64,000 nt of DNA from an uncultured Myxococcales bacterium. GTDB taxonomy: Bacteria; Myxococcota; UBA727; VGSZ01. Below, piece by piece: positions 31,734 through 58,644 of this stretch. The position numbers and the translations under genes are program-made. The notes under the pieces were generated by a model. The model ran no database searches. It was not told where the DNA came from and was given only the letters and a program-made list of their open reading frames with translations. Positions within the stretch are counted from its first letter, which is position 1. Each line of letters starts with the position of its first letter. The stretch spans positions 2,825-66,824 of the forward strand of contig CAZONM010000001.1 of assembly GCA_964580865.1 (NCBI GenBank), in the 5' to 3' direction.

Positions 31734-33419
31734 TCAGTAGCGCCACGCCACCGACAGCTCGGCGTAGTGAGCCCAAGCGCTCGCCCCGGCGACGAGCCCC
31801 GCGTTGTCTCGCGCCTCGAAGGTGTAGCGCGCCGTGGCCGTGACGCCCCCGAGGCCGCGATCCCAGCCGGCGCTCGAGAGCCGGCCGCCATCGACCGTGA
31901 AGGCCAGGCCCACGCCGAGCTGGAGCGTGTGCTCGATGACGGGCTGCGTGAGGAAGCGCGTGAACGGCTGCCCCGTGGGATCATCGAAGGGCGGCTGGAA
32001 CGTGGGCTCGCCGTCGAGGTAGCCGTCGTCGAGCACCGAGCCGTCGCGCCCCGGGATCACGCCCGCGCTGGCGTTGCCGTGCCGCACGAGCGCGGCCGAG
32101 GCCTCGAGATCCAACAGGCCGCGCTCCACGTCGTCGCGCGCGCGCACCAGCGCGCGCAGCTGCACGCGGTCCGAATTGGGCGGCAGCGCGGGGCCGAAGC
32201 TCTGCCCCGCGTTCGTGTAGTTGAACCAGTTGAGCCCGCCGCCGCCGTCGCCGATGTGCGTGTACATGTACGGCATCACCGCGGTGTAATCGACGGTGAC
32301 GAGGCGCAGGCCCTGGTGGAGCCCCGGGCGCCCGCGCCCCAGGAGCGCCGCCGGCGACAGCGCGGCGCCCACCTGCGCGGCCAGCTTGTACTTGGTGTCG
32401 AGCTGCAGGCGCGCCAGGTCGTTGAAGCTCGCGTCGTCGAGGAAGACCACGCCCTTGAGGTCGAGCCCGGCCAGCGGGCTCACGCGCGCGTCGACGCCCA
32501 CGAGCGCGTTGTCGGCGAAGCCGCTCAGCCCCTGGCTGTGAAAGTACGTCGCCACGGGGATGAAGTAGAGCAGCTCGAAGCGCCCACCCGAGACCACGGC
32601 CTCGAAGGCGCCGAGGTCGAGCCAGGGTGCCGCGTGGAAGTCGATGGCGTGCAGGTGCAGGTGCTTGCCGGTGATGGCGCCCTGGCCCGCGTCGTCGGTG
32701 GCGGTGAGCTCGTAGAGCGCCAGCTGCGCCGTCACGAGCGGCCGGCGCAGCACCAGCGAGAACGCGCCCGCCTGCGGGGCCTGCTGCCCGATGACGACGC
32801 CGTTGTGCCAAAAGGGGCCCGCGCGGTGGCGGCCGAGGCCGGCTTGGAACAACAGCTCGCCGTTGCCGTCGCCGATGCCCACGGAGCCGTGGGAGGTCTG
32901 GCGCAAGAAGAACGTCTGCCCGCCGAGGTCGAGGTCGGCGTCGTCGTAGATCAGATCCTCGCGCGCGCCCGAGTACGCCGGCAGCGCGAGCCCGTCGTCG
33001 GTGCGCACGGCCATCAGCTGGTAGCGCGCGGCGCCGCCGAGCCAGCTCGTCGCCATGCCTTGGAGCGACGGCTCGACCGTGGCCTTGAAGAACGGCCCAC
33101 CGGCGTCGCTCGCGCGGCGCTCCTCCATACGCAGCGTGAGGTGCAGCGGGTCGTCGAGCTGGCTGAGCAGCCAGGCGGCGCGCGCCCGGTCGGCGGGCCA
33201 GGCGGCGTGATTGCCCGCGACGTCCGCGAGCAGGCGGCGCACCATCTGCAACGGATAGGGCTGCAGCGACGGCAGCCGGCGCAGCAGGCCTTGGGCCTCC
33301 CACACCTCGAGCTCGGTGTAGAGGACGTCCGTGGGATCGGCGACGGCCTGCGCGCGCAGCGGGCCGGCCGCGAGGGCGAGCGCGCCAGCGAGCGCGCGCG
33401 CCCACCGGCCGAACGTCAA
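31734..33419 (-). CDS. outer-membrane beta-barrel protein (candidate polysaccharide-export porin, Wzp/PgaA-like), hypothetical
   Basis: The listed 867-aa ORF has an implausible Arg-rich N-terminal extension. An in-frame TTG at 33419 gives the signal peptide (M)TFGRWARALAGALALAAGPLRAQA and overlaps the stop of the upstream WecA-like gene (TTGA); the body is an amphipathic beta-strand protein ending ...SVAWRY. Confidence 0.6.
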   Translation of the reverse strand: MTFGRWARALAGALALAAGPLRAQAVADPTDVLYTELEVWEAQGLLRRLPSLQPYPLQMVRRLLADVAGNHAAWPADRARAAWLLSQLDDPLHLTLRMEERRASDAGGPFFKATVEPSLQGMATSWLGGAARYQLMAVRTDDGLALPAYSGAREDLIYDDADLDLGGQTFFLRQTSHGSVGIGDGNGELLFQAGLGRHRAGPFWHNGVVIGQQAPQAGAFSLVLRRPLVTAQLALYELTATDDAGQGAITGKHLHLHAIDFHAAPWLDLGAFEAVVSGGRFELLYFIPVATYFHSQGLSGFADNALVGVDARVSPLAGLDLKGVVFLDDASFNDLARLQLDTKYKLAAQVGAALSPAALLGRGRPGLHQGLRLVTVDYTAVMPYMYTHIGDGGGGLNWFNYTNAGQSFGPALPPNSDRVQLRALVRARDDVERGLLDLEASAALVRHGNASAGVIPGRDGSVLDDGYLDGEPTFQPPFDDPTGQPFTRFLTQPVIEHTLQLGVGLAFTVDGGRLSSAGWDRGLGGVTATARYTFEARDNAGLVAGASAWAHYAELSVAWRY

Positions 33420-34915
33420 TCGAGCACCGCGCGTCCGGCGGGCTGCGCGCTCGGGCTCCACAGCGCGGGCGTGCTCGCGGGATCGAGGGCGGGCCGGTGC
33501 TGACGGCGGCGCACGTCGCTGAGCGCCACGTGCAACGAGCGCAGCGCCTTCTTGCGGGCGGCGTGCATGGGGGCCGTGATCGGGCGCCCGTCCCACTGCA
33601 CCTCGAGCTCGCCCACGGTGTCGCGCCGGCCGATGGGCAGGCGCAGCACCGAGCGTCCTGCGTCGGGGGGCGCGCGGCGCTCGCCATCGTGCCAGGCGAG
33701 CACGCGCGTCGCGTCGTGAGCGTCGCGCACCTCGAGCCGCACCGCGTTGCAGCCGAGGGTGGGCAAGAGGGCCTCGATCTCGCGCCAGGCGCTGTCGAGG
33801 TTCGGCGCGGCGCGCACCTGCGACGCGGCCGTGCGCGCGCGCACCACGAGCCTCTTGCCCGACATGGGGACCACGCCGAAGAGACCCACGCGCCGCACCA
33901 GCAGCGCGCCGATGGCGGCCGCGGCCACCAGCGCCACCGCGCGGCGCACCGGGTTGTCGTCGAGCAGCTCCAGGCCGGCCAGGCCGAAGACGGCGGCCAC
34001 GCCCCAGAGCGTCAGCACCGCGCCGCGGTGCGTGAGGCCAAGCGCCATCAGGCGGTGGTGCAGGTGCTCGCGATCGGGCGAGAACGGGTTCTGCCCGCGC
34101 GCCATGCGGCGCACGATGCACAGCGTGGTGTCGAGGAGCGGCACCGCCAGCGCCAAGAGCGGCACCAGCGTGACCGTGAGCGCGGCGTTGGCCTTCTGGT
34201 GCGTCCACAAGGACGCCACGGCCAGGAAGAAGCCGAGGAAGAGCGAGCCCGAGTCGCCAAGGAAGATGCGCGCGGGGTTGAAGTTGAAGATCAGGAAGCC
34301 AACGAGGGAGCCGGCCAGCGCCACCATCAGCAGGCACAACAGCACGTGGTCAGCCGCGAACGCGACGCCGGCGAGCACCAACGTGGCGGCCAGCGCGATG
34401 CCCGCCGCGAGCCCGTCGAGCCCGTCAATGAGGTTGACGGCGTTGACCACGCCCACGATCCACAAGAGCGTCACCGGCATCGAGAGCAGCCCGAGCTCGA
34501 CCATGATGCCCATGGATCCGCCGAGGTGCTCGATGCGGAAGCCCACGGCCCACATGGCCGCGGCCACGGCGAACTGCACGACGAACTTCTGCCGCGCGCG
34601 CATGCCGCGCAGGTCGTCGTAGATGCCGAGCGCGACGATGGCGACACCGCCGCCGATGAACCCGAGCGTCAGGCGCAGGTCGGCGTAGACCGCGTTGGCG
34701 ACGTCGTTGTCGTGCAGCGCCAGGGCGATGACGGGGGTGAGGAAGGCCGCGGCCACCGCGATGCCGCCCAGGCGCGGCACGGCGCGACCGTGGAGCTTGC
34801 GGATCGCGTCGGGTTGGTCGAGCAACCGCCGCTTGCGTGCGAGCAGGGCCACCAGTGGCGTCAGCGCGGCGGCCACGAGCAGGGCGAGCAGGAACGCGAC
34901 GACGTAGGTTAGCAC
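33416..34915 (-). CDS. initiating UDP-HexNAc:undecaprenyl-phosphate HexNAc-1-phosphate transferase (WecA/WbpL/MraY family, GT4 PNPT) with a C-terminal cytoplasmic extension
   Basis: ORF 33416..35077; GTG at 34915 is preceded by an AGGGAGG Shine-Dalgarno; PNPT motifs VNAVNLIDGLDGLAAG, NPARIFLGDSGSLFLGF, and the N-terminus LTP...DQPDAIRKLHGRAVPRLGG. Confidence 0.8.
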   Translation of the reverse strand: MLTYVVAFLLALLVAAALTPLVALLARKRRLLDQPDAIRKLHGRAVPRLGGIAVAAAFLTPVIALALHDNDVANAVYADLRLTLGFIGGGVAIVALGIYDDLRGMRARQKFVVQFAVAAAMWAVGFRIEHLGGSMGIMVELGLLSMPVTLLWIVGVVNAVNLIDGLDGLAAGIALAATLVLAGVAFAADHVLLCLLMVALAGSLVGFLIFNFNPARIFLGDSGSLFLGFFLAVASLWTHQKANAALTVTLVPLLALAVPLLDTTLCIVRRMARGQNPFSPDREHLHHRLMALGLTHRGAVLTLWGVAAVFGLAGLELLDDNPVRRAVALVAAAAIGALLVRRVGLFGVVPMSGKRLVVRARTAASQVRAAPNLDSAWREIEALLPTLGCNAVRLEVRDAHDATRVLAWHDGERRAPPDAGRSVLRLPIGRRDTVGELEVQWDGRPITAPMHAARKKALRSLHVALSDVRRRQHRPALDPASTPALWSPSAQPAGRAVLD

Positions 34916-35255
34916 GTAGGCCTCCCTACGACACGCACCCACATCTTCGAGGTCCACCCCGATGCGTCGACTCTTCCGTCGAACAAGACCGGCTGCGCAA
35001 TCACACCAGCCTCCCAAGGAAATCCAACAACATGGCGCCGGGTCCCCGCCCGGAGCGCTTGGAAGAATGCCTGACAAATGGGACTTTCACCAGTCGATTC
35101 CCCATCGGGAGTGATCCGTACCTCTTCGAGACAGGTCGCCGGCCTCGGGGCCCACCCGACCAGGCCGAAAGGGTCGAAAAACTGGACACCCGAGCCCGTG
35201 CCCGATACCAACGGCGTCACCGGTGTGGGGCCCGTTACCGCCCCCGCACGGCTTG

Positions 35256-37673
35256 ATGATGCGGCGTGTCTTTGCCTGTTTCCTGGCGTTGACGGCAGCC
35301 AGCCTTGGCGCAGCCCGCGTGCGTGCCCAGGACCCGGCCGACCTGCAAAATTCGAGCGTCCTTGGCGCCGCCATGGGATCGCCTGACGGGTCGGAGGCGT
35401 TGCTGGGCAGCCACGAGGCTGGCGTCGGCGCGCGATCGCGGCGCTACGGCCTCGGCTTGCCGCTCGGCGAAAGCCCCAGCGGCGAGCCCTCGGCGCCCAC
35501 CCCGCACGTCAGCACACCGAAATCAAAGAAGAACCTTGGCCTGACCGGGTTCCAGCGCTTCGTCGAGGGCAGCGTGGGGCGCCTGCTGCCAATCGCGGGC
35601 ATGGAGGCGTTCGAAGGGGCGCCCAGCACGTTTGCCCCGCTCAAGAACCCCCAGGTCCCGGGCGACTACGTCATCGGCCCCGGCGACGAGGTGGTGGGCC
35701 ACATCACGGGCGTCATCGACCAAGGGCTCGCCCTGACGGTGGACGCGAGCGGCAGGGTTGCGATCCCCAAGGTCGGCACCGTCGTGCTGGCCGGCGTGCG
35801 CGCGGCGGACCTCGAGGCCTTCCTCACCAAGGAGCTCAGCCGCAGCTTCCGCAACTTCACGCTCTCGGCCACGCTCGGCCGGCTGCGCGCCGTCGAGATC
35901 TACGTCGTGGGCCAGGCGCGCGCGCCGGGCAAGTACACCGTGAGCGGCCTCTCGTCGGCCGTCAACGCCGTGTTCGCGAGCGGCGGTCCGTCGGAGCATG
36001 GTAGCTTGCGGCGCATCCACGTGTTGCGCGGCGGTGTCGTGGCGGCGCAGCTCGACCTGTACCGCTTCCTCACCCTTGGCGATCACACTGGCGACGTGCC
36101 GTTGCAGAGCGGTGACACGCTCGTGTTCCTTCCGGCCGGGCCGCGGGTGGCGCTGGTGGGGCAGGTGGCGCGCGAGGCGATCTTCGAGCTCGCCCACGAC
36201 GACGAGCCGCTCGGCGATCTGCTCCAGCTCTCGGGTGGCCTGCCGCCGGTGGCGTCGCGGCACCAGGCGACGCTCGAGCGCATCGACCCCGGCGCCAAGG
36301 TCGCGCGTCGCCTGCAGCACCTCACCAGCGACAGCGGCGGCTTGCAGACGCCGCTGCGCGACGGCGACATCGTCACGTTCTTCCCCATCAGCCCCGCGTA
36401 CGACAACGCGATCACCTTGCGCGGCAACGTGGCGCAGCCGATCCGCGTGCCCTTCGCACCCGGCATGCGGGTGAAGGACGTCATCCCCGATCGGCAGGCG
36501 TTGATCACGTTCGACTACTACAAGAAGCGCAACCTCCTGGTGCAGTTCGAGGAGCCGCCGCTGCCGCAGAAGCCCACCTACGGCCCCCTCGGTCAGCTCG
36601 AGGAGCCGCCGCCCCAGAAGACGCCGTTTTGGCGCGACCCGGCCGCGGCCTCGCTGGCCGACGTGCAGGCCGACGCGCGCCAGACCCTCGACACCGTCAA
36701 CTGGCAGTACGCGCTGATCGAGCGCCTGAACACCGCCACGCTCACCACCGAGCTCATCCCCTTTCACCTCGGCAAGGCGGTGCTCGAGGGGGATCGCAAG
36801 GAGAACATCGAGCTCCATGCCGGCGACGTCATCACGGTGTTCGGCGAGAGCGACCTGCAGGTGCCGCAGGCCAAGCGCACGCGCCTGGTGCGCATCGAAG
36901 GCGAGGTGTCGGCGCCCGGCGTGTACCAGCTCGGCCCCGGTGAGACGCTGCCAGCACTGATCGCGCGCGTCGGCGGCTTCACCGAGCAGGCCTACGTCTA
37001 CGGGCTGTCGCTCAAGCGCGCCAGCGTGCGCGAGGCGCAGACGCGCACCCTCGAGACCGTGGCTCGCCAGCTCGAGACCCAGATGCGCGAGGGCTTGGCC
37101 GCGCGGCAGGCGAACATCGGCGGCGGCACCGATTCGGGCACGATGGTGGCCCTGCAGGCACAAACACAAGCCGAGGAGCGCCTGGTCCGCGAGCGCGTCG
37201 AGCGGCTGCGCGCCCTGCGCCCCGAGGGGCGTGTGTCGCTGGAGCTCGATCCCCGCCGGCCGCAGGTGCCCGACGTGCTGCTCGAGGCCGACGACGAGAT
37301 CTTCGTGCCCGCCGTGCCGTCGTTCGTGTCCGTGCTCGGCGCCGTACACAATGAGAACAGCCTGCTGTGGAAACAAGGGCGCACCGTGGCGCAGTACATC
37401 GACATCGCGGGTCTCACCGAGTCCGCAGACGCCGAGAACCTGTTCGTGCTGCGCGCCGACGGCAGCGTCGATGGGCGCAACCGAGGCTTCTGGGCGTTCT
37501 TGGGACCGCAGCCCATCGACACGGAGCTGCAGCCCGGCGACGTCATCGTGGTGCCCGAGCGCGTCGACCTCGAGACGGGCTACACCGTCTTCATGCGCGG
37601 GCTCAAGGACTGGACGCAGATCCTCGCGAACATGGGGCTGGCGGCGGCGGCCATCGCGGTGTTCGCGCGATGA
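35256..37673 (+). CDS. outer-membrane polysaccharide export (OPX) protein, KpsD/Wza-like (Poly_export + SLBB domains)
   Basis: ORF 35223..37673; Met12 start gives the signal peptide MMRRVFACFLALTAASLGAARVRAQ; Poly_export motif PGDYVIGPGDEVVGHITGV...DASGRVAIPKVGTVVLAGV; repeated SLBB-like segments; hydrophobic C-terminal helix ILANMGLAAAAIAVFA. Confidence 0.8.
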   Translation: MMRRVFACFLALTAASLGAARVRAQDPADLQNSSVLGAAMGSPDGSEALLGSHEAGVGARSRRYGLGLPLGESPSGEPSAPTPHVSTPKSKKNLGLTGFQRFVEGSVGRLLPIAGMEAFEGAPSTFAPLKNPQVPGDYVIGPGDEVVGHITGVIDQGLALTVDASGRVAIPKVGTVVLAGVRAADLEAFLTKELSRSFRNFTLSATLGRLRAVEIYVVGQARAPGKYTVSGLSSAVNAVFASGGPSEHGSLRRIHVLRGGVVAAQLDLYRFLTLGDHTGDVPLQSGDTLVFLPAGPRVALVGQVAREAIFELAHDDEPLGDLLQLSGGLPPVASRHQATLERIDPGAKVARRLQHLTSDSGGLQTPLRDGDIVTFFPISPAYDNAITLRGNVAQPIRVPFAPGMRVKDVIPDRQALITFDYYKKRNLLVQFEEPPLPQKPTYGPLGQLEEPPPQKTPFWRDPAAASLADVQADARQTLDTVNWQYALIERLNTATLTTELIPFHLGKAVLEGDRKENIELHAGDVITVFGESDLQVPQAKRTRLVRIEGEVSAPGVYQLGPGETLPALIARVGGFTEQAYVYGLSLKRASVREAQTRTLETVARQLETQMREGLAARQANIGGGTDSGTMVALQAQTQAEERLVRERVERLRALRPEGRVSLELDPRRPQVPDVLLEADDEIFVPAVPSFVSVLGAVHNENSLLWKQGRTVAQYIDIAGLTESADAENLFVLRADGSVDGRNRGFWAFLGPQPIDTELQPGDVIVVPERVDLETGYTVFMRGLKDWTQILANMGLAAAAIAVFAR

Positions 37674-38779
37674 GCGACGCTCCCGGCGACCCGGTGGCAC
37701 CCGGCGCTTCCCCGGAGCTCGACCTGGTGGCGGCGGTGCGCGTGCTGCGCGCGGGCTGGCGCCTGTGGGCGCTGGCACCGCCGGTGGTGGGCCTGCTCAC
37801 GTTCGGCATCGCATCGGTGTGGCCGAAGACGTACACGGCCTCGGCGTTGGTGATGCCGCCGGCTCAACAGAGCTCGTCGGCGCTGGCGGCGCTGGCGAGC
37901 CAGCTCGGCGCGCTCGGTGGGCTGGCCGGCGCGGCGGCGGGCGCCAAGAGCCCGATCGACCAGCATGTCGCGCTCCTGCGCAGCCGCAACGTCACCGACG
38001 CGCTCATTCGCCGCTTCGACCTGCGCCAAGTGTACGGCAAGGCGCTGCTGGAGGAGGCGCGCCTGGCGCTGGCGGCGCGGTCCTCCATCAGCGCCGGCAA
38101 GAAGGACGGCCTCATCGTCATCGCGGTGGACGACCACGACCCGCGCCGCGCCGCCGACCTCGCCAACGGCTACGTCGACGAGCTGCGCCGGCTCCTGGCC
38201 GAGGTCGCCGTGGGCGAGGCGTCGCAGCAGCGCGCGTTCTTCGAGGGCCAGCTGAAGGACGCGCGCACCGCGCTGACGACGGCGGAGGAGGCGCTCAAGG
38301 CCGCGCGCGTCTCCGAGACGATGCTCAACGTCACGCCGCAGCTGGCCGTGGCGGGTGTGGCGCGCCTCAAGGCGCAGATCACGGCGCAAGAGGTCAAGAT
38401 CGCGGCCATGCGCGGCTTCGCGGCCGACGACAACCCCGACCTGCGGCAGGCTCACGCCGAGCTCGCGGCGCTGCGGGCCCAGCTCGCGGGCACGGAGGAC
38501 CGGGCCGGCGCCGTGGAGTCCGACTACCTCAAGCTCTATCGCGACTTCAAGTACGCCGAGATGCTCTTCGAGCTCATCGCCAAGCAGTATGAGCTGGCCA
38601 AGATCGAGGAGGCGCGCGAGGGCTCCGTCATCCAGGTCATCGACGCCGCCATTCCGCCAGAGCTGAAGTCGAGGCCCAAGCGGCTCCCCATCGCCGCCGG
38701 CGCGGCCGCCGCTGCCCTCATCGCGGCAGTCGCGTGGCTGCTCGCCGGGCCCCGCGTCCTCCAGGTGCTGCGCGGCTGA
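37670..38779 (+). CDS. polysaccharide co-polymerase (PCP; Wzz/chain-length-determinant-like) with no kinase domain
   Basis: Start overlaps the OPX stop (ATGA); N-terminal TM LWALAPPVVGLLTFGIASVW, long coiled-coil periplasmic region, C-terminal TM AAGAAAAALIAAVAWLLAG; 369 aa. Confidence 0.7.
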   Translation: MSDAPGDPVAPGASPELDLVAAVRVLRAGWRLWALAPPVVGLLTFGIASVWPKTYTASALVMPPAQQSSSALAALASQLGALGGLAGAAAGAKSPIDQHVALLRSRNVTDALIRRFDLRQVYGKALLEEARLALAARSSISAGKKDGLIVIAVDDHDPRRAADLANGYVDELRRLLAEVAVGEASQQRAFFEGQLKDARTALTTAEEALKAARVSETMLNVTPQLAVAGVARLKAQITAQEVKIAAMRGFAADDNPDLRQAHAELAALRAQLAGTEDRAGAVESDYLKLYRDFKYAEMLFELIAKQYELAKIEEAREGSVIQVIDAAIPPELKSRPKRLPIAAGAAAAALIAAVAWLLAGPRVLQVLRG

Positions 38780-38833: not shown

Positions 38834-39892
38834 ATGCGGACCTACCGAGTCATCACCGACCGCCCGTTGCGCTTCGCCCTGGCCGGGTGCGGCCGTATCG
38901 CAGAGAGCCACTTCGAGGCCATCAAGAAGCATGCGGGGCGGTGCGAGCTGGTGGACGTGTGCGATGTCTCGGCCACGGCGTTGGAGGCAGCGGCGACGAA
39001 GACGGGCGCGCGTCCGCACCGCTCGTTCACCGGCATGCTCGCCGCCACCAACGCCGACTGTGTGGTGCTCACCACGCCGAGCGGGTTGCACCCCGCGCAG
39101 GCCATCGAGGCGGCGCGCGCGGGCTTCAACGTCATGACCGAGAAGCCCATGGCGACCCGGTGGCACGACGGCCTCGCCATGGTGAAGGCGTGCGACGACG
39201 CCGGCGTTCGGCTGTTCGTGGTCAAACAGAACCGCCGAAACCAGACGCTGCAGCTGGTCAAGCAGGCCGTCGAGCGGCACCGCTTCGGGCGCATCTACAT
39301 GATCGGCGTCAACGTCTTCTGGACCCGGCCGCAGTCGTACTACGACAGCGCCGCGTGGCGCGGCACGTGGGAGTTCGACGGCGGCGCGTTCATGAACCAA
39401 GCGAGCCACTATGTGGACCTGCTCGATTGGATCGGCGGCCCGGTGGAGAGCGTCATGGCCTACACCGGCACGCTGGCGCGCGACATCCAGGTCGAGGATA
39501 CGGGCGTCGCCGCCCTCAAGTGGCGCAACGGCGCCATGGGGACGCTCAACGTCACGATGCTGACCTACCCGAAGAACCTGGAAGGCTCGATCACCATCCT
39601 CGGCGAGAAAGGATCGGTGCGCGTGGGGGGCGTGGCGGTCAACGAGATCCAGCATTGGCAGTTCGCCGACCCCGACCCCATGGACGCCACCATCAAGGAC
39701 GCCAGCTACCAGACCACGTCGGTGTATGGCTTCGGCCACCCGCTCTACTACGACAACGTCATCAGCACGCTGCGCGGTGAGGCCGCTCCAGAGACCGACG
39801 GCCGCGAGGGCCTGCGCTCGCTGGAGCTCTTGATCGCCATGTACCTCTCGGCGCGCGACGGCAAGCGCGTCAGCCTGCCGCTCTCCTACTAG
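38834..39892 (+). CDS. Gfo/Idh/MocA oxidoreductase, WbpB-like UDP-N-acetyl-2-amino-2-deoxyglucuronate 3-dehydrogenase
   Basis: 352 aa; Rossmann N-terminus [15 protein letters not shown]; followed directly by WbpD- and WbpE-like genes. Confidence 0.75.
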
Positions 39893-39894
39893 CC

Positions 39895-40488
39895 ATGCCC
39901 GTCACCATCCACCCCTCCGCCATCGTCGACGCGGGCGCCGTGCTCGGCGACGGCTGTCGCGTCTGGCACTTCGTCCACATCAGCGGCGGAGCGCGTATCG
40001 GCGCGCGCTGCTCGTTCGGGCAGAACGTCTATGTCGGGAACGACGTGGTCATCGGCGACAACGTCAAGATCCAGAACAACGTCTCGGTCTACGACGCGGT
40101 CACGCTCGAGGACGACGTGTTCTGCGGTCCGAGCATGGTGTTCACCAACGTCATGAACCCGCGCTCGGCCGTGGTGCGCAAGAACGAATACCGGCGCACG
40201 TTGGTGAAGCGCGGCGCCACGCTCGGTGCCAACTGCACCGTCGTGTGCGGCCACACCGTGGGCGCACACGCGTTCGTGGGCGCGGGTGCGGTGGTGTGCC
40301 ACGACGTGCCCGACTTTGCGTTGGTCATGGGCGTGCCGGCGCGCCAGGTCGGGTGGATGAGCCGATTCGGCGAGCGGCTGCGCTTCCCCGCCGGTGGCGG
40401 CGAGGCGGTGTGCCCTGCCACTGGCGATCGGTATCGCCTGGTCGACGGCGCGGTCGCGCTGGTCGAGGAAGCGGGCCCTCGGCCATGA
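39895..40488 (+). CDS. hexapeptide-repeat N-acetyltransferase, WbpD-like (UDP-2-acetamido-3-amino-2,3-dideoxy-glucuronate N-acetyltransferase)
   Basis: 197 aa; left-handed beta-helix repeats ([33 protein letters not shown]). Confidence 0.75.
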
Positions 40489-41603
40489 GCAGCACGACGA
40501 CGCTCGAGTTCATCGATCTCAGGTCGCAGTACGCCGCTCTGCGCGACACCATCAACGCGCGCATCCAGCGCGTGCTCGATCACGGGCAGTTCATCCTCGG
40601 CCCCGAGGTCAAGGAGCTCGAGGAGAAGCTGGCGGCGCTGACCGGCGCGCGTCATTGCGTCACCGTGGCGAGCGGCACCGAGGCGATCCTCATCTCGCTG
40701 ATGGCGCTGGGGCTCAAGCCCGGTGACGAGGTCATCACCACGCCCTTCACGTTCGCCGCCACGGCCGAGATGATCGTGTTGCTCGGTGGTCGCCCGGTGT
40801 TCGTCGACGTCGAGGACGACACCTGCAACCTCGACGCCCGGCAGGTGGAAACCGCCGTCACCTCGCGCACGCGCGCCATCATGCCGGTGTCGCTGTATGG
40901 GCAGTGCGCCGACATGGCGGAGCTGAACGCCATCGCGGCGCGACACGGCCTGCCGGTCATCGAGGACGCGGCCCAGAGCTTCGGCGCCACGTATCGAGGC
41001 ACGAAGAGCTGCAACCTCTCCACGCTCGGTTGCACCAGCTTCTTTCCGTCGAAGCCGCTGGGCTGCTACGGCGACGGCGGCGCCGTGTTCACGAGTGACG
41101 ACGCGTTGGCGCAGGCCGTACGAGAGCTGCGCGTGCACGGACAGAGCCAGAGGTACACCCACACGCGCGTGGGCGTGGGTGGTCGCATGGACACGCTGCA
41201 GTGCGCGGTGGTGCTCGGCAAGCTCGAGCGGTTCTCCTGGGAGCTCGAGCGGCGGCGCGCCCTCGGCGACCGCTATCGCGCTCGGCTCCGCGAGCTCGGC
41301 GTGGCGGCCACGCCGATTGCGGTGCGCGCCGACCGTGACTGCGTGTGGGCGCAGATGACGGTGCTCGTCGACGAGCGCGATCGCGTGCAGGGGCGGCTCA
41401 AGGAGCTCGGCGTGCCCACGGCCGTCCACTACCCCAAGGTGCTCCATCACCAGCCCGCCTACGCCGGCCTGGCGCCGCCCACCGCATGTCCGAACGCCGC
41501 GCACGCCGCGTCCCGCGTGATGAGCCTGCCCATGAGCGCCGATCTGACCGATGCGCAGCTCGAGCGTGTGGTGACGTCGCTGGCGCAGGCGACGCAGCGC
41601 TGA
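40485..41603 (+). CDS. DegT/DnrJ/EryC1/StrS-family PLP aminotransferase, WbpE-like
   Basis: Start overlaps the wbpD-like stop (ATGA); motifs [40 protein letters not shown]. Confidence 0.8.
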
Positions 41604-41649
41604 CTCACGAGGCTTCCGAGGAACCGTTGGCACGACACACCGCGCGCTG

Positions 41650-43300
41650 CGGAATCGATCGTACATGTAGAATCATCGTACATCCTCGCCGCGTCGGTCC
41701 TCACAGCCGAGCAGACCCGTGGCCGAGCAAGTTGGTCGACGCGTCCACCCACTCGCCCAGCGTCGAGCACGCGACCCGGAAGCCTCGCGCTTGAAGATGC
41801 CCTCCTGCCGGTGCAGCGGGATGTTGTCGCAGAACTTCACCACCAGCACGAGCGCCAGGAACCCGGGCTCCACCATCGACTTCGAAATCGTGCGCTCCGG
41901 CATGTCGGCGATGAAGACGCGGGTGGCGGCACCAAGCAGCGGCGGCAGCGACGTCGGCGATTGCGCCGGCTGCGACGGCGCCGCGTCCGCCCGCGCAGGT
42001 TCCGGCGCTGTGTACTCCTCGCGCACCAGCTCGATCCTCACCTTCGACGCCGTGATCCGCTCGATGAGCTGCGTCTTCTCTTCGCCGATCTTGACGAGCC
42101 GCTCACCACCGGGCGCGAGCCGCTCTGGGGGGACGAGCACGAACCGACGAGGTGGCAGATCCTCGAGCGCGAGCTTGCGCCGGCCGCGCGGCGACGGCTC
42201 CTTGTTCGTGCTCGCCGACCGCCCCGCCTTCGCACCGGCGATCGCCTTGGCGGCCTGGTCAGCCGCCCGCTGCGCCTCGTCGAGCGCGCCCACGTCGCCG
42301 GCCCGCATGCTGCCGATCGTCGCCAAGAACTCGAACAGCGGCAGTTACGCTTCCTCGTGCCGCACCCGCTCGGCCTTCTGCCCGAACGCCAGGCGCTACA
42401 ACAGCTCGTGCTCCAACAGGAGCTTGTCGTACGCCGTGCATCAGTGCGTCGAGCATCGCCACGGTCTCGAGGTGGCGGGCACGCAGTGTGTTGACGTCGG
42501 CGGGCTCCTCGTTCACGTCGTCATCTATCGACTCCCCGAGGAGGTTGGGGAGGAAATCGGCACGCGCGTACGCTGTTGGCGAGGGCGTTGACCGCGCGCT
42601 CGGTGGCCACGTCCTGCTTTGTTCGCACGGCGACGGCGCCCACCAGGCACCAAGCCGTCCATTGAGCAGGGCATGTCGATGGGTTCGAGCGCAGCCAGGG
42701 TCCGTCGTCCGCTGGGGACCATACGCGCTCCAAGGCTGCGAAAACGCGGATGAGCTCGGCATCGATGAACGCGGGCGGCACTCGCACGACGCGTCCGTTG
42801 GCGAGCGCGACTTGATGCGCTCGCGCTCCAGGTGGCCGGTGACAGCCGCCACTACCTCGACGAAGGTCCCTTCCACTTCAAGAGTGCGGCCGACCCCGAG
42901 CGCGATCTCGGCGACCCGAGGAACCATCGCCACCAGGCGAGCGTCGCCGGCTTCACGCGCCCGCACGCCGCGAACGCGTCCCGCGACGGGCCGCTCCTCG
43001 AACACCGCGCCCCTCGGCGCGCCACACGTCGCTGGACTCCCTCGCCATGCGTCACCTCCGCGCGCGCCACCACGCGGCGCGGCGGCGCGGGTCACTACGT
43101 GGTTGTCGGTTGTAGACGGGCACGCGCACGACTCCGGCGAGGCCAGGCGTGACGACCAGTACTGCCGCTCCCCACGGTGGGCACGGATCGTCAGCTGCGG
43201 GCCGACCGGAGCGGCGAAGATCATGCGACCAGCTCTACCGCCCCGCACGCGATCAGTTCACCCACCCGTTGACATCCCGCTGAGCGCGACAGCCTCCCAG
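41650..43300 (-). mobile_element. degenerate IS66-family insertion sequence remnant (frameshifted and truncated; no intact transposase)
   Basis: Broken ORFs only. The 41673..42326 reading frame is clearly TnpC-like; a direct repeat ATCGTACAT...ATCGTACAT lies at 41658..41683 at its truncated end; the region sits exactly at the GC-content transition. Confidence 0.5.
41673..42326 (-). pseudogene. IS66-family transposase (TnpC) N-terminal fragment, inactivated
   Basis: LPPRRFVLVPPERLAPGGERLVKIGEEKTQLIERITASKVRIELVREEY corresponds to the TnpC zinc-finger region but has lost the CxxC cysteines; PGFLALVLVVKFCDNIPLHRQEGIFKREA matches the conserved PGLLAHVLVSKYADHLPLYRQ block; the DDE catalytic domain is absent because the frame ends at the wbpE-like gene. 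Confidence 0.5.
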
Positions 43301-43401
43301 CGCTTCGCGAAGGCGCCTCCACTGGACATCGACGCCGTCGATGATATCGACGAACCCGGCTGCTGGGATGGCCAGCGATGCCTGGCTGGAGGTCGCCTCC
43401 C

Positions 43402-44571
43402 ATGATCAAGCGTGATGTTGTCCGACAGTACAACCTTCCCCTCGAGGTCAAGTACTGCAAGAAGTGCACGGTAAGCAACCAGAGACCACGCATCACCTTC
43501 GACGGCGACGGCGTCTGCTCAGCATGTCGGTTCGCGGACTTCAAGCGTCAACAAATCGATTGGGCCGAACGCGAACGTGAGCTGGTCGACCTCTGCAACC
43601 GGCATCGGCGCGGCAACGGAGACTATGACGTTATCGTTCCCTGCAGCGGTGGCAAGGATGGTGGGTTTGTCGCTCACCAACTCAAGCATAAATACAACAT
43701 GAATCCGCTGACCGTGACATGGGCCCCACTCCGAGCAACGGAGATTGGACGACAGAACCTCGACGCGTTCATTGCCAGCGGGTTTGACAATGTCTTGGGA
43801 ACGCCGAATGGCCGTCTCACGCGCAAGCTGACGAGGCTCTCGACGCAATACCTAGGTGATCCCTTCCAGCCGTTCATCTATGGCCAAACCAATTTTCCGC
43901 TCCATATGGCCGTGAAGCACCACGTGCCACTCATCATGTACGGCGAGAACGGTGAGGTCGAGTACGGCGGCGATATGAAGAATGCCTTTCGGCCAACCCG
44001 TGACATCCAAGACCACGATAGGCACTATTTCTCGGGCATGCCGCCAGAATTTTGGATTGAGCACGGCATTGGCACCGGAGACCTGAAGCCGTTCATGGCG
44101 CCGCCATACGAAGAGATTGCGGCGAACAAAACAGAGATCCACTTCCTGGGCTATTACAAGTTTTGGGATCCTCAGGAAAACTTCTATTACTGTCGCGAGC
44201 ACACTGGCTTTACCCCGAACCCAGAGCGCTCCGAGGGCACCTATTCCAAGTACGCAAGCCTCGATGATCGCGTTGATGGCTTCCATTACTTCTTGGGCTA
44301 CATCAAGTTCGGGATCGGTCGCACAACCTCCGACGCCGCGCATGAGATTCGCGACGGAAAGATCGACCGCGAAGAAGGTATTGCGTTGGTCAAACGGTAC
44401 GACGGTGAATTTCCGCAAAAGTACTATCCCGAGTTCCTTGAATACATCGGCCTTTCCGACGATGAGTTTCAGGAGGTCGTTGACAGTTGGCGCTCGGACC
44501 ACCTTTGGCATCGTACAGCAACTGGTTGGGAGCTGCGGCATGCGGTCTGGCACGAGGCGCACCGCCAGTGA
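43402..44571 (+). CDS. N-acetyl sugar amidotransferase (WbpG/WbuX/PseA family, PP-loop ATP pyrophosphatase)
   Basis: ORF 43378..44571, start at Met9; N-terminal CxxC...C zinc ribbon (CKKCTVSNQRP...CSAC); PP-loop SGGKDG; lower GC than the flanks. Confidence 0.8.
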   Translation: MIKRDVVRQYNLPLEVKYCKKCTVSNQRPRITFDGDGVCSACRFADFKRQQIDWAERERELVDLCNRHRRGNGDYDVIVPCSGGKDGGFVAHQLKHKYNMNPLTVTWAPLRATEIGRQNLDAFIASGFDNVLGTPNGRLTRKLTRLSTQYLGDPFQPFIYGQTNFPLHMAVKHHVPLIMYGENGEVEYGGDMKNAFRPTRDIQDHDRHYFSGMPPEFWIEHGIGTGDLKPFMAPPYEEIAANKTEIHFLGYYKFWDPQENFYYCREHTGFTPNPERSEGTYSKYASLDDRVDGFHYFLGYIKFGIGRTTSDAAHEIRDGKIDREEGIALVKRYDGEFPQKYYPEFLEYIGLSDDEFQEVVDSWRSDHLWHRTATGWELRHAVWHEAHRQ

Positions 44572-44585
44572 GCGGAGTGCCACTC

Positions 44586-45389
44586 ATGACGTCACGGCAC
44601 GCCCAGATGCTGCATCACGGCGGAGCAGGATCCCATCGGGTCCGCCTAATCCCGCGCCTCGATATCAAGGGACCCAACCTCATCAAGGGCGTCCAGCTCG
44701 AGGGGCTGCGTGTGATAGGGAGCCCGCAGCTGTATGCATCGAGGTACTACGAGGCGGGTGCGGATGAACTCCTCTATGTCGACGTTGTCGCGAGCCTCTA
44801 CGGTCGCAATAGCCTCCACGAGATCATTCGCCGTGCGGCCGAAGATGTCTTTGTGCCGCTGACCGTGGTCGGCGGACTACGAAGCGTCGATGACGTTCGT
44901 GATGCGCTGCGCGCCGGCGCCGACAAGGTTGGCATCAATACCGCTGCCGTGAAGCGGCCCCTGCTCATCGCTGAGGTCGCGAGGGCCTTCGGTTCGCAGT
45001 GCATGGTTCTTTCGATTGAAGCCAAGCGCATCGGACCCGGTCAATGGGAGGCCTATACCGACAACGGTCGTGAGCGAAGCGGCCTGGATGTCGTGGCATG
45101 GGCCCGTCGTGGCGTTGAGCTTGGAGCGGGCGAGATCGTATTGACGTCTGTTGACCGAGAAGGTGGTCGCCAGGGCTACGAGTTGGAGTTGATCTCGGCC
45201 GTTGCTTCTGCGGTAGATGTTCCAGTGATCGCAAGCGGTGGGATGGGCAAACCGATGGACCTCGTTGACGCAGTGGCGGCGGGAGCGAGTGCTGTAGCAA
45301 TGGCCGATATCCTCCATTACGAACGCGCCACACTCTCTCAACTCCGTGAGGCGGCGCGTGGGGCTGGGATTGAAGTAAGGCATCCATGA
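44586..45389 (+). CDS. imidazole-glycerol-phosphate-synthase cyclase-subunit homologue (HisF-like; WbuZ/HisF2) partnered with the sugar amidotransferase
   Basis: ORF 44487..45389, start at Met34; (beta/alpha)8 HisF motifs RLIPRLDIKG, VPLTVVGGLRSVDD, VIASGGMGK. Confidence 0.8.
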   Translation: MTSRHAQMLHHGGAGSHRVRLIPRLDIKGPNLIKGVQLEGLRVIGSPQLYASRYYEAGADELLYVDVVASLYGRNSLHEIIRRAAEDVFVPLTVVGGLRSVDDVRDALRAGADKVGINTAAVKRPLLIAEVARAFGSQCMVLSIEAKRIGPGQWEAYTDNGRERSGLDVVAWARRGVELGAGEIVLTSVDREGGRQGYELELISAVASAVDVPVIASGGMGKPMDLVDAVAAGASAVAMADILHYERATLSQLREAARGAGIEVRHP

Positions 45390-46018
45390 AGGCCGTCACG
45401 GTTGTCGACCATGGCAGTGGCAATCTGCTCAGCGTCGCGCGTTCGCTAGAGCGAGTCGGCGCCACGGTGACGTTCTGTTCTGATACGGCCAGTCTTCTTC
45501 GCGCGGAGCGCCTAGTCCTTCCTGGGGTCGGCGCGTTTGCGACAGGAATGCAGGGGCTATCCTCCAGAGGGCTCGTCGACGCTCTACGGTCGTATTCGGA
45601 AACCGGGCGGCCGATCCTAGGCATTTGCCTCGGCATGCAGTTGCTCGCTGATGTGAGCGAGGAGTTTGGCGCACACGAGGGGCTACGGCTTATTCACGGG
45701 CGTGTTCAAATGATCCCGCGGCGAGACGTGGACGGTAATGCATTGCGGGTTCCGTTTGTCAACTGGGCGGAGCTGCAGCCGTCCCAATCATGGGAGTCAT
45801 CGATTCTCGCCGATGTCCCAACTGGAAAGGCGTTCTATTTTGTGCACTCGTACCACCTCGTAGTCGACAATCCCGCACACGAATTGGCCCACTACGTCTA
45901 CGGTGGGCGGAAGATCGCAGCCGTTGTCCAGGCTGGCGCCGTTACCGGCTGCCAGTTTCATCCGGAGAAGAGCGGGCCGGCCGGGCACGCGCTTCTCGCG
46001 CGCTTTCTCGCCGGTTGA
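45386..46018 (+). CDS. class-I glutamine amidotransferase, HisH-like (WbuY/HisH2)
   Basis: 210 aa; catalytic GICLGMQLL Cys and the HPEKS C-terminal motif; ATGA overlap with the preceding gene. Confidence 0.8.
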   Translation: MKAVTVVDHGSGNLLSVARSLERVGATVTFCSDTASLLRAERLVLPGVGAFATGMQGLSSRGLVDALRSYSETGRPILGICLGMQLLADVSEEFGAHEGLRLIHGRVQMIPRRDVDGNALRVPFVNWAELQPSQSWESSILADVPTGKAFYFVHSYHLVVDNPAHELAHYVYGGRKIAAVVQAGAVTGCQFHPEKSGPAGHALLARFLAG

Positions 46019-46033
46019 CGAGGACGATCCTCC

Positions 46034-47509
46034 TTGGCGCGCCTGGGCAGCATCGACGACCTCCTATCGATCGAGGACGATCCGGCGATCCTCGGTTTCC
46101 GTTGCCCGGCTACGGGACTACTCCTTTGGCCACTCGTTCGGGTTGCGTTCCTGCGAGAAATCCTCGGTGAGGTGTTCTACGGCGGCGCGACGGCCCCAGC
46201 GCTTTCGGGATATTCCTTACGCGCGGTCCAGTCCTTGGCGAAGGCAGCTTGGCACGATTTTCGGCATTCGCCGAATGGTGCCGACGTTGTAGTCATGGCC
46301 TCCGGTGCGGGCCGGGTGATGCGGAGCGGCCAGTCGTACAATCGCCTTGCCGATCCATTCGTCGACGTCTTGCCAAAGGGCACGATCCTTATCGAGGATC
46401 TCTTTGGCTGGCAGTGGCCAGTGCTACGCCCAGGGTCAAGAGTGCTATTCCACACGCCGTTTCAGGTCGCCGCGAGCGTCGCCGGGCGGTGTTTGGTTCG
46501 TAGCCGTCACCGGTCGCTCGCCGATCAACTGATCGCATTCGTCGTCGATCGGGCGGGTAAGTCGCTCGGCTGGGCACCTCGTCCGATTCGACAGGCCAGC
46601 GTTGCCAGGATGCTTGCTCACAAGATGGCGGCGCTGCCGGTTCTTCAGCATGGGTACCGACAATTGTTCGAGAGGGTCCGTCCACGGCTTCTCTTGAAGG
46701 AAGAGGCCTGCTATGGCCCGTCGGCAATGCTGATTTCGGTTGCTCGCGAGTTTGGCATAATAACGGCTGAATACCAACACGGCGTTGTAGCGCCTGGTCA
46801 CGATGCGTACAATTTCGCCCCGACGCTTTGCGCATCACCCGCCTGGAGGGCAATCCTGCCAGATTGGTTCCTCAGCTACGGGCAATGGTGGGACGACCAA
46901 ATTAACGCACCGATCAAGCGGCGTGTGATTGGCAATCCGTATCGCAGTCTGTTACTAGAGGGATCCGGAACGGGGTCAATGACGTCTCGCCAGCATCGTG
47001 AGGTATTGGTACTCGGTGACGGCATTGAGACCAACGCCTATGTTGGCCTTGCTCGCGCGCTTGCGCAGGCGCTACCAACATGGCACGTCGTATTTCGGCC
47101 CCATCCACTCGAGCGGCAGCTCGTGTCGGACCGGCACCCGAATGGCATTCCTGTCGACGACGGTCGATTTTTGGAGGTCGATTTGCAGGGGGATCTCTAT
47201 CGTTCCTTCAAGCGGTCGACGGTCGTCATTAGCGAGATGTCAACGGGCCTGTTCGAAGCTATGGGATTGGTACAGGTACCGCTGCTTTGGGACACACCGA
47301 AGTCGCGGTTCACCTTGCCAACTCACAGCTTTGCCTCGTTTCGTACGGTCGATGAGTGCGCGGAGATTCTACGGAACCATGTCGGCGATGATGCTTGCCG
47401 GGACGACGCCGGCGCCATCTGGGCACCGGATTGGCAGTCAAGGTACCGCGCATTTCTCAACGACGTTCTTCAAGGCAATAATGCTCCTCTGGTCGAGAAT
47501 GTTGTGTAG
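46034..47509 (+). CDS. hypothetical protein of the island (491 aa) with a C-terminal GT-B/Rossmann-like domain (putative glycosyl- or glycerophospho-transferase-like)
   Basis: No named family recognised; C-terminal segment VLVLGDGIETNAYVGLARALAQALPTWHVVFRPHPLE...STVVISEMSTGLFEAMGLVQVPLL; paralogous to the C-terminal half of 49835..50737. Confidence 0.55.
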   Translation: MARLGSIDDLLSIEDDPAILGFRCPATGLLLWPLVRVAFLREILGEVFYGGATAPALSGYSLRAVQSLAKAAWHDFRHSPNGADVVVMASGAGRVMRSGQSYNRLADPFVDVLPKGTILIEDLFGWQWPVLRPGSRVLFHTPFQVAASVAGRCLVRSRHRSLADQLIAFVVDRAGKSLGWAPRPIRQASVARMLAHKMAALPVLQHGYRQLFERVRPRLLLKEEACYGPSAMLISVAREFGIITAEYQHGVVAPGHDAYNFAPTLCASPAWRAILPDWFLSYGQWWDDQINAPIKRRVIGNPYRSLLLEGSGTGSMTSRQHREVLVLGDGIETNAYVGLARALAQALPTWHVVFRPHPLERQLVSDRHPNGIPVDDGRFLEVDLQGDLYRSFKRSTVVISEMSTGLFEAMGLVQVPLLWDTPKSRFTLPTHSFASFRTVDECAEILRNHVGDDACRDDAGAIWAPDWQSRYRAFLNDVLQGNNAPLVENVV

Positions 47510-48241
47510 CGGGGCGCTGATGTCTGGTGGCCGATCTTTTTCGCGCGCCCGGTGTGGCCGGCGTCCAAGGGTGCTGGTGGTTCTGAGCGAGCGAATGAGG
47601 TGGCTGCGCACGAAACGGCTGGGCATGAAATGTAGTCGCTCCCGCCGTAGGCGCTGCGCTATCGCCATGCCGAAGTCGCGGCCTGGTGAAACAGGGACGA
47701 AGAGGACGGATGCAAGGGCTACATCTCTCATTCAAGACGACTCGTTCCACACGAAGTCGACGCGTCGTGGGAACGGTATTTCGGACCGATCGTTGAGCCA
47801 GCAGATACAGCAAGCTCACGCCGGCGTCGCCACGCGGCGGATCGTGCCCGGAAAGCGGATCGCTTGCATCGGCCCGTTGTGTCGTCGTGCTGGAGGTTTC
47901 CTGGCCAACGCACTTGCCACGACATCGCCGTCGCTCTGTTGGTTTGACAGTGGGCCGGTAGGGCCTTGCGCGTTATCTGCAAGGGCGAACGGTTGCGTTG
48001 CTGCTTCGCCACCCTCGGTCTTTGCCAGGGTCCCGGCGTCGCGTCGTGGGTTCATGGAGCGAAGCACGGAGCTCGGGTGGCCTTTGATCTCACTGCAACT
48101 TGCGGCGTCCGGCTCACTCAATGCACCTGCTCGCCGCTATTGCAGGTACCAACTCTCCAGCGTTGCGCGCCACGGTCCGCATCGGGACGATATCTGGGTG
48201 GTTCTGTCCGCTTTGCCGGCGATGTCCGCCGCCTGGCGGTC

Positions 48242-49534
48242 ATGATGCTGAAAAGTGGGTTCATATACCTGGCAGCGAATGTCGCCTCGTCGGCTGTACC
48301 GTTCTTCTTGCTGCCCGTCCTGACGAGAGCGTTGGCGCCTGAGGCCTTTGGAGCGATCGTCGGGTTTTCTTTGGTGGCGACCATTGTGGCACCAATCGCT
48401 GGACTAAATGCTCATGGCGCGGTTGGCGTCGCATGGTTCAACCGTGACCGGGAGCATCTCCCCAGTTATGTCGGCGCAGCTGTCCTTGTTGCTTTCACAA
48501 GCACAGCGGTATGGGCGACTATCGCCGCGTTCGTCGTTTCGCAGACACCGATCGTGGACGCCGTGCCTGCCGAATGGGCGGCCGCAGCCGTTGTCATGGC
48601 TGGCGCCCAGGTCGTTCTCCAGATGCGGTTGGTGCTTTGGCAAAGCCAGAAGCGGCCGATGCCGGTCGCGACCATGCAATTCGCAGGTAGCATCGTACAT
48701 ATTGGGCTCGCGCTCGTGGCAGTGCTTGTTCTTGGACTCGAAGCACCGGGCCGAAACGGCGCGGCGGTTGTTGCAGCGGTCTTGTTTGCCGTTCTTGGAG
48801 TAGCTGCGCTGGCATGGGACGGCAATCTGACGTTGCGGGTTCGGCGCGACGACATTTTCGGGGTGGTGCGGTTCGGTGGCTTGCTCGTACCGCACGCGTT
48901 GGGCGGGGCCCTGACAGTCACCGTTGATCGAGTGGTCGTGGCAGCATGCTTGGGGCCTGATGCACTTGGAACCTACGGGGCCGCCGCCCAACTAGGCGCT
49001 GTCGTCGCCATCGCTGCAGATGCTTTCGGCAAGGCGTACAGTCCATGGCTGTTTGAGCGACTCGCGGCTGACGACGAGTCGGAGCGGCTCGTTGCTGTCG
49101 GCGCCATGTATGCTCTTGCCCCCCTTGCCATACCCGCCGGCGGCGTTGCCGCTGTTGCTCTGACAGCTCTCAGTAGCGTCGCTCTGGGCCCTGAATATGG
49201 CGCAGCCGCTGAACTCTTGCCATGGTTCATCGTTGGAGGGGTCGCGACGATCATCTACTTGTTGGTATCGCCGTTGTTTTTCTTTCACGACCGAACCGCT
49301 CGCCTGAGCTCCACAACGCTACCCTGCGCCGCCGTAGGGGCGCTCTGTACCTTCGCGCTAGCAAGAATCGACGGCGCTCGCGGCGCGGCCGCGGGCTTCG
49401 CGTTGACGCAGACGCTCCTGACGACGGGCGTGTGGGTCGTTGCTTTCCACACGTTCGACCTGCCATGGAGAAAACCATATCTTGCATTGCGGACTTGCTG
49501 GCGCCTTCTTCGGAATGTTGACGCCAAACCCTGA
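48242..49534 (+). CDS. wzx: Wzx-type polysaccharide flippase (MOP/PST family)
   Basis: ORF 47966..49534, first ATG at 48242 (MMLKSGFIYLAANVASSAVPFFLLPVLTRAL, the typical PST N-terminus); ~12 TM helices. Confidence 0.7.
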   Translation: MMLKSGFIYLAANVASSAVPFFLLPVLTRALAPEAFGAIVGFSLVATIVAPIAGLNAHGAVGVAWFNRDREHLPSYVGAAVLVAFTSTAVWATIAAFVVSQTPIVDAVPAEWAAAAVVMAGAQVVLQMRLVLWQSQKRPMPVATMQFAGSIVHIGLALVAVLVLGLEAPGRNGAAVVAAVLFAVLGVAALAWDGNLTLRVRRDDIFGVVRFGGLLVPHALGGALTVTVDRVVVAACLGPDALGTYGAAAQLGAVVAIAADAFGKAYSPWLFERLAADDESERLVAVGAMYALAPLAIPAGGVAAVALTALSSVALGPEYGAAAELLPWFIVGGVATIIYLLVSPLFFFHDRTARLSSTTLPCAAVGALCTFALARIDGARGAAAGFALTQTLLTTGVWVVAFHTFDLPWRKPYLALRTCWRLLRNVDAKP

Positions 49535-49834
49535 CTCGGCCGGCCATGGTGCATGCGATCTCGATCCTGGCGCAACGCTGAGCTCGTTTCCACAGGCCCT
49601 CGCGCACGGTGGCAGGTTCCGCGCTCGCCGTCCGGACGCTGTTGGGCGGCTGGATGCCTCAGCCGAGCGGTGCAGCATCAACAACGTCGGTCACGCCGCC
49701 CATCAGGATGTCGGTGGTCGCCGGAGAATCGGCGATACTCACGGGATGACGGCGCGCATTCGCCAGCTCGAGAGCATTGGCTACCTTTCGCGGGACGTTG
49801 GCGCGCGAATGCGCCAAGCGGGAGCGAGCGCTTC

Positions 49835-50737
49835 ATGAGCGAGCGGCGCGCCTCTGAACTGATGGCCAAGCGCGAGCGCGTCGACGCGCGCTCCTCCGTG
49901 CCTAGGAGGCACGCACGTGACGAGGCGGTGTGGCCGATGGTCCTGCACTCGTTCGTCGACGCACCTCGTCTCGCCTTCCCGGGCGCGCCGCCGAGCCGGG
50001 CGGTGCGCGCATGGGCCGTCGCGCGGCGACGGCAGCAGGGAGCCTCCGGACGCCCAAAGCGGTGCGCGCGCGCCGCCCGTATCGGTGCGCCCAGTAGGCT
50101 GCCTCGTTCCGAAGATGTGTCGTTCGCGCGCGTGGGGGCTCGTGCCATCGTCGGCGGCAACCCGTGGCTGTCCTTGTGGTCGTCCGCCGGCGCCGACGCC
50201 GACGTCGAGGACGCGCGCGCCGCAGCCGCCGCGCTGCGCCGCCGCGCCGGCGCGTGCCCCGTGGTGCTGGTGACGCTGCAGCCGGGGATCACCGATGGCG
50301 CCGAGCTCGCGCTGGTGCAGCGGGTGGCACGCGCCACACAGGGCCGGCTCTGGTTCTGGATCCGCTTGCATCCCGCCATGCTCGAGCGCCTCGACGAGGT
50401 GCGCCGGGCCTTCGCCACCCTCGAGCACTGCACCGTCGACGAACCCACCGAGCTGCCGCTGCCCGCGCTGCTCGGTGCCTGCGACGCGCACCTGACCCAC
50501 AGCTCTTCGACGGTCATCGAGGCGGCGCAGTTCGGCGTGCGCTCCGTCGTCACCTCCGTCTACGGCGCCGAGCTCTACCAGCGCCACATCGACGACGAGC
50601 GGCTGACGCTCGCGAGCGGGGGCGCTGACGTCGTCGCCGCGGCGGTGCTGCAGGCGACCAAGCGTGGTCGTGCGGGCACGTCGCACACGGGCAGCATCGA
50701 CGTGGCGCTGGCGCAGGTGCTCGGGGAGGCGCGGTGA
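49835..50737 (+). CDS. hypothetical protein, truncated paralogue of the 46034..47509 protein's C-terminal GT-B-like domain; start uncertain
   Basis: CPVVLVTLQPGITDGAELALVQRVARATQGRLWFWIRLHPAMLE...SSTVIEAAQFGVRSVV aligns to the island protein's VLVLGDGIETNAYVGLARALAQALPTWHVVFRPHPLE...STVVISEMSTGLFEAMGLVQVPLL; the first ~100 codons are Arg-rich and may be non-coding. Confidence 0.35.
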   Translation: MSERRASELMAKRERVDARSSVPRRHARDEAVWPMVLHSFVDAPRLAFPGAPPSRAVRAWAVARRRQQGASGRPKRCARAARIGAPSRLPRSEDVSFARVGARAIVGGNPWLSLWSSAGADADVEDARAAAAALRRRAGACPVVLVTLQPGITDGAELALVQRVARATQGRLWFWIRLHPAMLERLDEVRRAFATLEHCTVDEPTELPLPALLGACDAHLTHSSSTVIEAAQFGVRSVVTSVYGAELYQRHIDDERLTLASGGADVVAAAVLQATKRGRAGTSHTGSIDVALAQVLGEAR

Positions 50738-54640: not shown

Positions 54641-55028
54641 CACGCAGCGCGCGCAGGTCGTGGGGTTCGAGCTTGACGATGCCACTGGTTCACCCGCCGG
54701 CCGCACCGTGGGCGGCACCCTCGTGTCGTGTTCGCCATGTCCGCGCGCGACGCCGCTCGACGGTCTCGGCGACGGCGTCGTCGCGGCGCTCGACGCATGG
54801 GCGCGCCATGCTCGGTCGCCACGCGGCGCCCTCGCCGGCACCACCGGCACGCGCTCATCGGCGGACGTGTCGCGCGCCAGCCTACTGCCCCACGCTCGAG
54901 GTTCGTAGCGGGAAGTGTGCGGCGACCCTCCGTTCCGCTCGCCGCCGGTCCGCCGGCAACCGACGTGGCCGCGAGCAGCGGGGTCGAGCGCCTTGACAGC
55001 AGGCGCGGGGTCCGCGACACCGAATGCG

Positions 55029-56114: not shown

Positions 56115-56120
56115 CCGCCC

Positions 56121-58639: not shown

Positions 58640-58644
58640 GCGCC

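Follow-up and report, generated by a model that had tools for sequence, protein, structure and literature searches.

The outer-membrane protein Wzi binds its cognate polymer and is required for surface retention, not for synthesis or export (PMC3791409). As published, it consists of a plug followed by a barrel that begins at about residue 92 (PMC3791409, PMC9603273). The Wzp/EpsX porins are of about 380-420 aa, have no N-terminal helical bundle and are PgaA- or AlgE-like (PMC9603273, PMC9601211, PMC12819527). They pair with Class-3 OPX lipoproteins of about 200 aa via a C-terminal Phe-Phe motif, and the Class-3 OPX proteins are defined by a Poly_export-SLBB architecture only, a length of about 200-250 aa and the absence of an outer membrane-spanning or GfcC domain (PMC9603273, PMC9601211, PMC12819527). 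In both defining papers, absence of the plug is used to tell Wzp/EpsX from Wzi. Wzi homologues have been reported beside 48 (plus 14 plug-less) Class-2B OPX genes (Saidi et al. 2022).

We analyzed a polysaccharide gene cluster in a stretch of 64,000 nucleotides (the window), for which the original prediction had proposed a Wzp-type pairing of an OPX protein with a separately encoded barrel, here termed barrel A. This pairing was not upheld: N-terminal helices in the barrel, the Class-2 character of the OPX protein and the transferase as conserved partner speak against it. The locus is probably a rather unremarkable gene cluster of the capsule type that includes a divergent relative of Wzi.

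Gene structure of barrel A and its junction with the transferase

Barrel A, a Wzi-like outer-membrane protein, is encoded on the minus strand at positions 31734..33419 (561 aa plus stop, TTG start). The ORF has a strong coding signature, with GC1/2/3 values of 0.75/0.49/0.96. In the in-frame extension upstream of the TTG the pattern is reversed (0.96/0.76/0.51), which places the gene start at or near this codon. The same TTG was selected in independent gene calls for an identical contig and for a 72%-identical relative, and the N-termini of barrel A homologues align from residue 1 onward. The only other start codon further downstream is a GTG at V31, use of which would remove the signal peptide MTFGRWARALAGALALAAGPLRAQA|V. 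The barrel and signal peptide of the original prediction were confirmed, and the length of 562 aa given there is corrected to 561 aa plus stop. Immediately downstream of barrel A lie moaA and a nitrate-respiration cluster, with no sugar genes there.

The TGA stop of the transferase gene (33418-33416) overlaps the TTG of barrel A (33419-33417), and the minus-strand sequence reads ...GCTCGATTGACGTTC. The ATTGA overlap that had been described for the two genes is therefore present. A close junction was also found in relatives (ATTGA in locus L002, TGATG in L003 and an 11-nt gap in L004), and it is preserved at identities as low as 48%. Judging from the overlapping stop and start codons, translation of barrel A is probably coupled to that of the initiating transferase, and an operonic arrangement of the two genes is supported. 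None of the genes for barrel A, the transferase, the OPX protein and the polysaccharide co-polymerase (PCP) is a chance ORF; barrel A has 52 close homologues, and at E<=1e-30 there are 295 representative clusters.

The transferase gene (33416..34915, minus strand) encodes a WecA/WbpL-like polyprenyl-phosphate HexNAc-1-phosphate transferase of 499 aa. Its most likely start is GTG 34915, which is preceded by a GGGAGG motif. The MraY/WecA catalytic core is present (Glycos_transf_4, PF00953, 8e-41), and the match to TIGR02380 (2e-41, 142 bits) is far below the 326-bit equivalog cut-off. By sequence the protein belongs to the WecA-type family, and the match gives the family level and no sugar specificity. 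A C-terminal cytoplasmic extension of about 130 aa is conserved only in Myxococcota orthologues. The transferase-barrel operon is separated from the OPX-PCP operon by a divergent intergenic region of 340 bp (34916..35255). No match to the sigma-70 consensus was found within these 340 bp, where the promoters are presumed to lie.

The OPX protein and the remainder of the cluster

Two start codons were considered for the OPX gene. GTG 35223 gives the longest ORF, which corresponds to the 816 aa originally predicted, and ATG 35256 gives 805 aa (MMRRVFACFLALTAASLGAARVRAQ) and is preferred by the gene callers. The gene is accordingly placed at 35256..37673 on the plus strand (805 aa; Poly_export, several SLBB domains, GfcC-like). 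With this start its divergent orientation stands, and the distance of 300 bp first given becomes 340 bp.

Pfam searches of the OPX protein returned Poly_export, SLBB and SLBB_2 as well as a weak match to PF06251 (0.0039), and the signal peptide is of the SPI type. Profile comparison with the PDB yielded Wza (9e-18) and GfcC (3P42, 7.7e-5), and Foldseek likewise yielded Wza (6e-17) and GfcC (1e-8). A helical hairpin at 589-653 and a GfcC-like domain at about 650-770 were assigned from AF2 secondary structure and the profile. The C-terminus reads ...DWTQILANMGLAAAAIAVFAR. The hydrophobic terminal helix noted earlier was recovered as a prediction for residues 787-804, about 18 residues with a pLDDT below 50 in the AF2 monomer model. 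Across 30 homologues the tail is near-invariant (GLKDWTQI..GLGAAAI). Pfam Wza_C was undetected in the OPX protein, isolated tails included, and a C-terminal Phe-Phe motif is absent from both its own end (...AIAVFAR) and the family consensus (...AAAIKVLR). With its N-terminal part resembling Wza, its GfcC-like domain and a predicted C-terminal helix in a near-invariant tail, the protein is a Class 2 (KpsD-like) OPX and not a short Class 3 lipoprotein; the original prediction had left the class open. In length and in its SPI signal it conforms to Class 2B.

As had been proposed, the OPX stop overlaps the ATG of the PCP gene (ATGA, 37670-37673). In the PCP (37670..38779, plus strand, 369 aa), Pfam and NCBIfam detected Wzz and GNVR domains but none of the kinase type. 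Further polysaccharide biosynthesis genes follow on the plus strand at 38834..51891. Pfam and NCBIfam assigned to them a WbpB-like oxidoreductase, a hexapeptide acetyltransferase, a DegT aminotransferase and WbuX/HisF/HisH-type amidotransferases, next to unannotated membrane proteins. The same region contains a Wzx-like flippase (47966-49534, plus strand), an EpsG-like candidate polymerase (50734-51891, plus strand) and, on the minus strand, an IS66 transposase fragment (41673-42326). No ABC-transporter gene was found within the cluster.

A second barrel gene, barrel B, is located at 51884..53524 on the plus strand, and its start lies 8 nt inside the preceding gene. It encodes a very divergent paralogue of barrel A (546 aa, signal peptide), which was found by hmmsearch with the A1 profile (7e-10) and by hhalign (96.9% probability, E 2e-10). 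Homologues of barrel B are encoded by the last gene of a polysaccharide operon, overlapping a GT1 glycosyltransferase gene. At the right end of the cluster (53540..59710, mixed strands) are genes for a second WbuX-like amidotransferase (minus strand), a GDP-mannose 4,6-dehydratase, an epimerase/reductase and an AglZ/HisF2-type acetamidino-modification protein (minus strand).

Fold and conservation of barrel A

Structure prediction of barrel A, which the original prediction had named as a check, gave an AF2 model with a pLDDT of 86.8 and a pTM of 0.88. Its 18 strands fall within residues 92-560, and neither a soluble protein nor a fold without a barrel was obtained. The signal peptide (cleavage AQA|V) is followed by three helices (32-42, 57-68 and 75-88), each with a pLDDT above 90, and residues 32-88 are predicted to be periplasmic. 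The C-terminus reads ...VAWRY, the last residue being aromatic. On the basis of this model, the 561-aa protein is a real 18-strand outer-membrane beta-barrel with a signal peptide.

The closest solved structure was Wzi (2YNK), with a score 5 Z units above any porin. PgaA scored only 13.3, and similarity to AlgE was no greater than for unrelated OprD-family porins. Barrel A itself had no Pfam or NCBIfam match of any kind, and 2YNK was unreached by sequence in profile searches from barrel A. PF14052 was matched by 9/36 barrel A homologues, all below threshold (best 1.4e-6; highest score 28.0 bits, cut-off 30.1). With the barrel A family profile, tandem paralogues were matched (about 1e-10), and one of them exceeds the PF14052 gathering score (34.9 versus 30.1 bits). 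Since barrel A leaves PF14052 unmatched at the gathering score and does not reach 2YNK by sequence, it is filed as Wzi-like by its modeled fold, rather than as a PF14052 member.

Conservation in barrel A is highest in the predicted surface loops, with values of 0.61-0.68 compared with 0.36-0.65 for the strands. Two of the loops are long (L8, 48 residues; L7, 34 residues), and conservation peaks in L3 and L5-L9. Across relatives just 30-40% identical overall, the loop residues K252, H257, D328, D329, K345, Y384, H388, H447-G-N-A-S451, D464 and R488 were found to be invariant. High loop conservation is unexpected in a lectin for a serotype-specific polymer and counts against a Wzi-type reading.

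Genomic neighborhoods of the barrel A family

Members of the barrel A family occur in Myxococcota and Spirochaetota, in most cases without linkage to OPX genes. In all six Myxococcota loci (6/6) the transferase gene lies directly upstream of the barrel gene on the same strand. An OPX gene within 10 kb of the barrel was present in 3/6 Myxococcota loci and 0/39 Spirochaetota loci. A GT4-family transferase adjoins the barrel in 7/39 Spirochaetota loci, four of which have the same-strand operon of transferase and then barrel. The other 32 of the 39 have neither transferase nor OPX near the barrel, and the majority of the Spirochaetota members sit in unrelated gene neighborhoods.

Proposed role of barrel A and alternative explanations

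The presence of a Wzx-like flippase and the lack of an ABC transporter among the genes found indicate a pathway of the Wzx/Wzy type. The region would represent that end of a heteropolysaccharide cluster (capsule or EPS) at which initiation and export are encoded, in a high-GC Myxococcota-like genome. The WecA-like transferase would begin the repeat unit on undecaprenyl phosphate, diacetamido/acetamidino sugars would be added, and the unit would be flipped by Wzx and polymerized with the aid of the PCP. The polymer would then exit via the Class-2 OPX protein, whose own near-invariant C-terminal helix likely spans the outer membrane. Barrel A would be Sec-exported and BAM-inserted as a Wzi-type protein, with the three-helix bundle at its periplasmic mouth and the long conserved loops at the surface. 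We assume by analogy that helices and loops occlude its lumen, and most likely barrel A does not form the export channel. Instead, it probably binds the polymer that emerges at the surface and holds it to the cell, as E. coli Wzi does; by this analogy, the protein would function as a lectin or anchor.

If barrel A were a Wzp-type porin, it would serve as the terminal outer-membrane conduit for the OPX protein, as WzpX/S/B in M. xanthus. An 18-strand barrel encoded 1.8 kb from an OPX gene within a polysaccharide cluster fits such a role, as do the shortness and low modeling confidence of the OPX terminal helix, and some Wzi-like barrels near OPX genes are candidate porins according to Saidi et al. 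The predicted N-terminal helices and the wide margin of Wzi over PgaA make it improbable, and the OPX protein, with its 805 aa, GfcC-like domain and conserved tail, is not a lipoprotein of roughly 200 aa ending in Phe-Phe. A survey of 61 myxobacterial genomes found the neighborhoods of Class 1 and Class 2 OPX genes free of Wzp-type barrels (Saidi et al. 2022). At the present locus the transferase gene and the presumed divergent promoter region separate barrel A from the OPX gene, and in half of the related Myxococcota loci barrel and OPX are not syntenic.

The same neighborhoods could be explained if barrel A acted with the product of the transferase and not with the OPX protein, recognizing some conserved feature that the WecA-like enzyme sets, for instance a reducing-end HexNAc or a lipid-linked terminus, and so tethering or processing the glycan at the outer membrane. 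In another version, barrel A would be an enzyme of the outer membrane, with the invariant polar residues of the loops in use. The recurrence of the transferase in both phyla, compared with that of the OPX gene, and the conservation of the loops are in favor of this explanation. We consider it rather unlikely, because it has no biochemical precedent among Wzi-type barrels, most Spirochaetota loci have neither gene nearby, and the conserved loops may simply close off the barrel by folding inward, as those of Wzi do. A general 18-strand solute channel (OprD/AlgE/maltoporin type) at the cluster edge, with no part in polysaccharide biology, would agree with the unrelated neighborhoods of most Spirochaetota members and with the nitrate-respiration genes next to barrel A. 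Such a channel is highly improbable given the predicted Wzi-specific helical bundle and the score of Wzi over every porin. The stop/start overlap with the transferase was by one count kept in all six Myxococcota loci, though the junction in L004 is a gap, and barrel genes next to a GT4-family transferase occur again in a second phylum, far above expectation for a one-to-few-copy gene family. The Wzi-type reading is the favored one.

Comparison with known systems

With Wzi (E. coli K30 / Klebsiella group 1; 2YNK; PF14052 Caps_assemb_Wzi), barrel A shares a signal peptide, a predicted three-helix N-terminal bundle, a barrel of 18 strands that begins near residue 92, and surface loops of considerable length. 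Both are encoded in capsule clusters of the Wzy type, together with an OPX protein of the Wza family. However, the two proteins are only about 13% identical, barrel A is about 85 residues longer, and its surface loops are highly conserved across phyla. The wzi gene precedes wza-wzb-wzc, whereas the barrel A gene comes after the initiating transferase, and the partner of Wzi is the Class 1 protein Wza, whereas the OPX protein here is of Class 2.

WzpX/EpsX (MXAN_7418), WzpS/ExoB (MXAN_3226) and WzpB (MXAN_1916) of M. xanthus resemble barrel A in the 18-strand outer-membrane barrel, the Wzx/Wzy-type cluster and the myxobacterium-like host. The Wzp barrels are elliptical and open, whereas the lumen of barrel A is presumed to be occluded, and their genes lie 3-65 bp from a Class-3 OPX gene, which is not the arrangement at this locus; barrel A is set apart from them by their published descriptions, not by sequence alignment. 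AlgE of P. aeruginosa is without the N-terminal helical bundle and belongs to a synthase-dependent pathway that works without an OPX protein. The cluster is also unlike classical group 2 (KpsMT) in that it has a flippase of the Wzx type and no ABC transporter was found in it.

The OPX protein agrees with KpsD-type Class 2B (Saidi et al. 2022) in its Poly_export-SLBBn-GfcC architecture, SPI signal, length of about 800 aa against a class median of 824, and predicted C-terminal helix after the GfcC-like domain, the likeness to KpsD being drawn via the class description. Class 2B genes are frequently syntenic with Wzi homologues, and a Wzi-like barrel likewise lies near the OPX gene here, an association that is already known. 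Modestly new are the transferase, not the OPX protein, as the constant genomic partner of the barrel A family in Myxococcota, the concentration of conservation in the predicted surface loops, and the second, more divergent barrel paralogue in the cluster.

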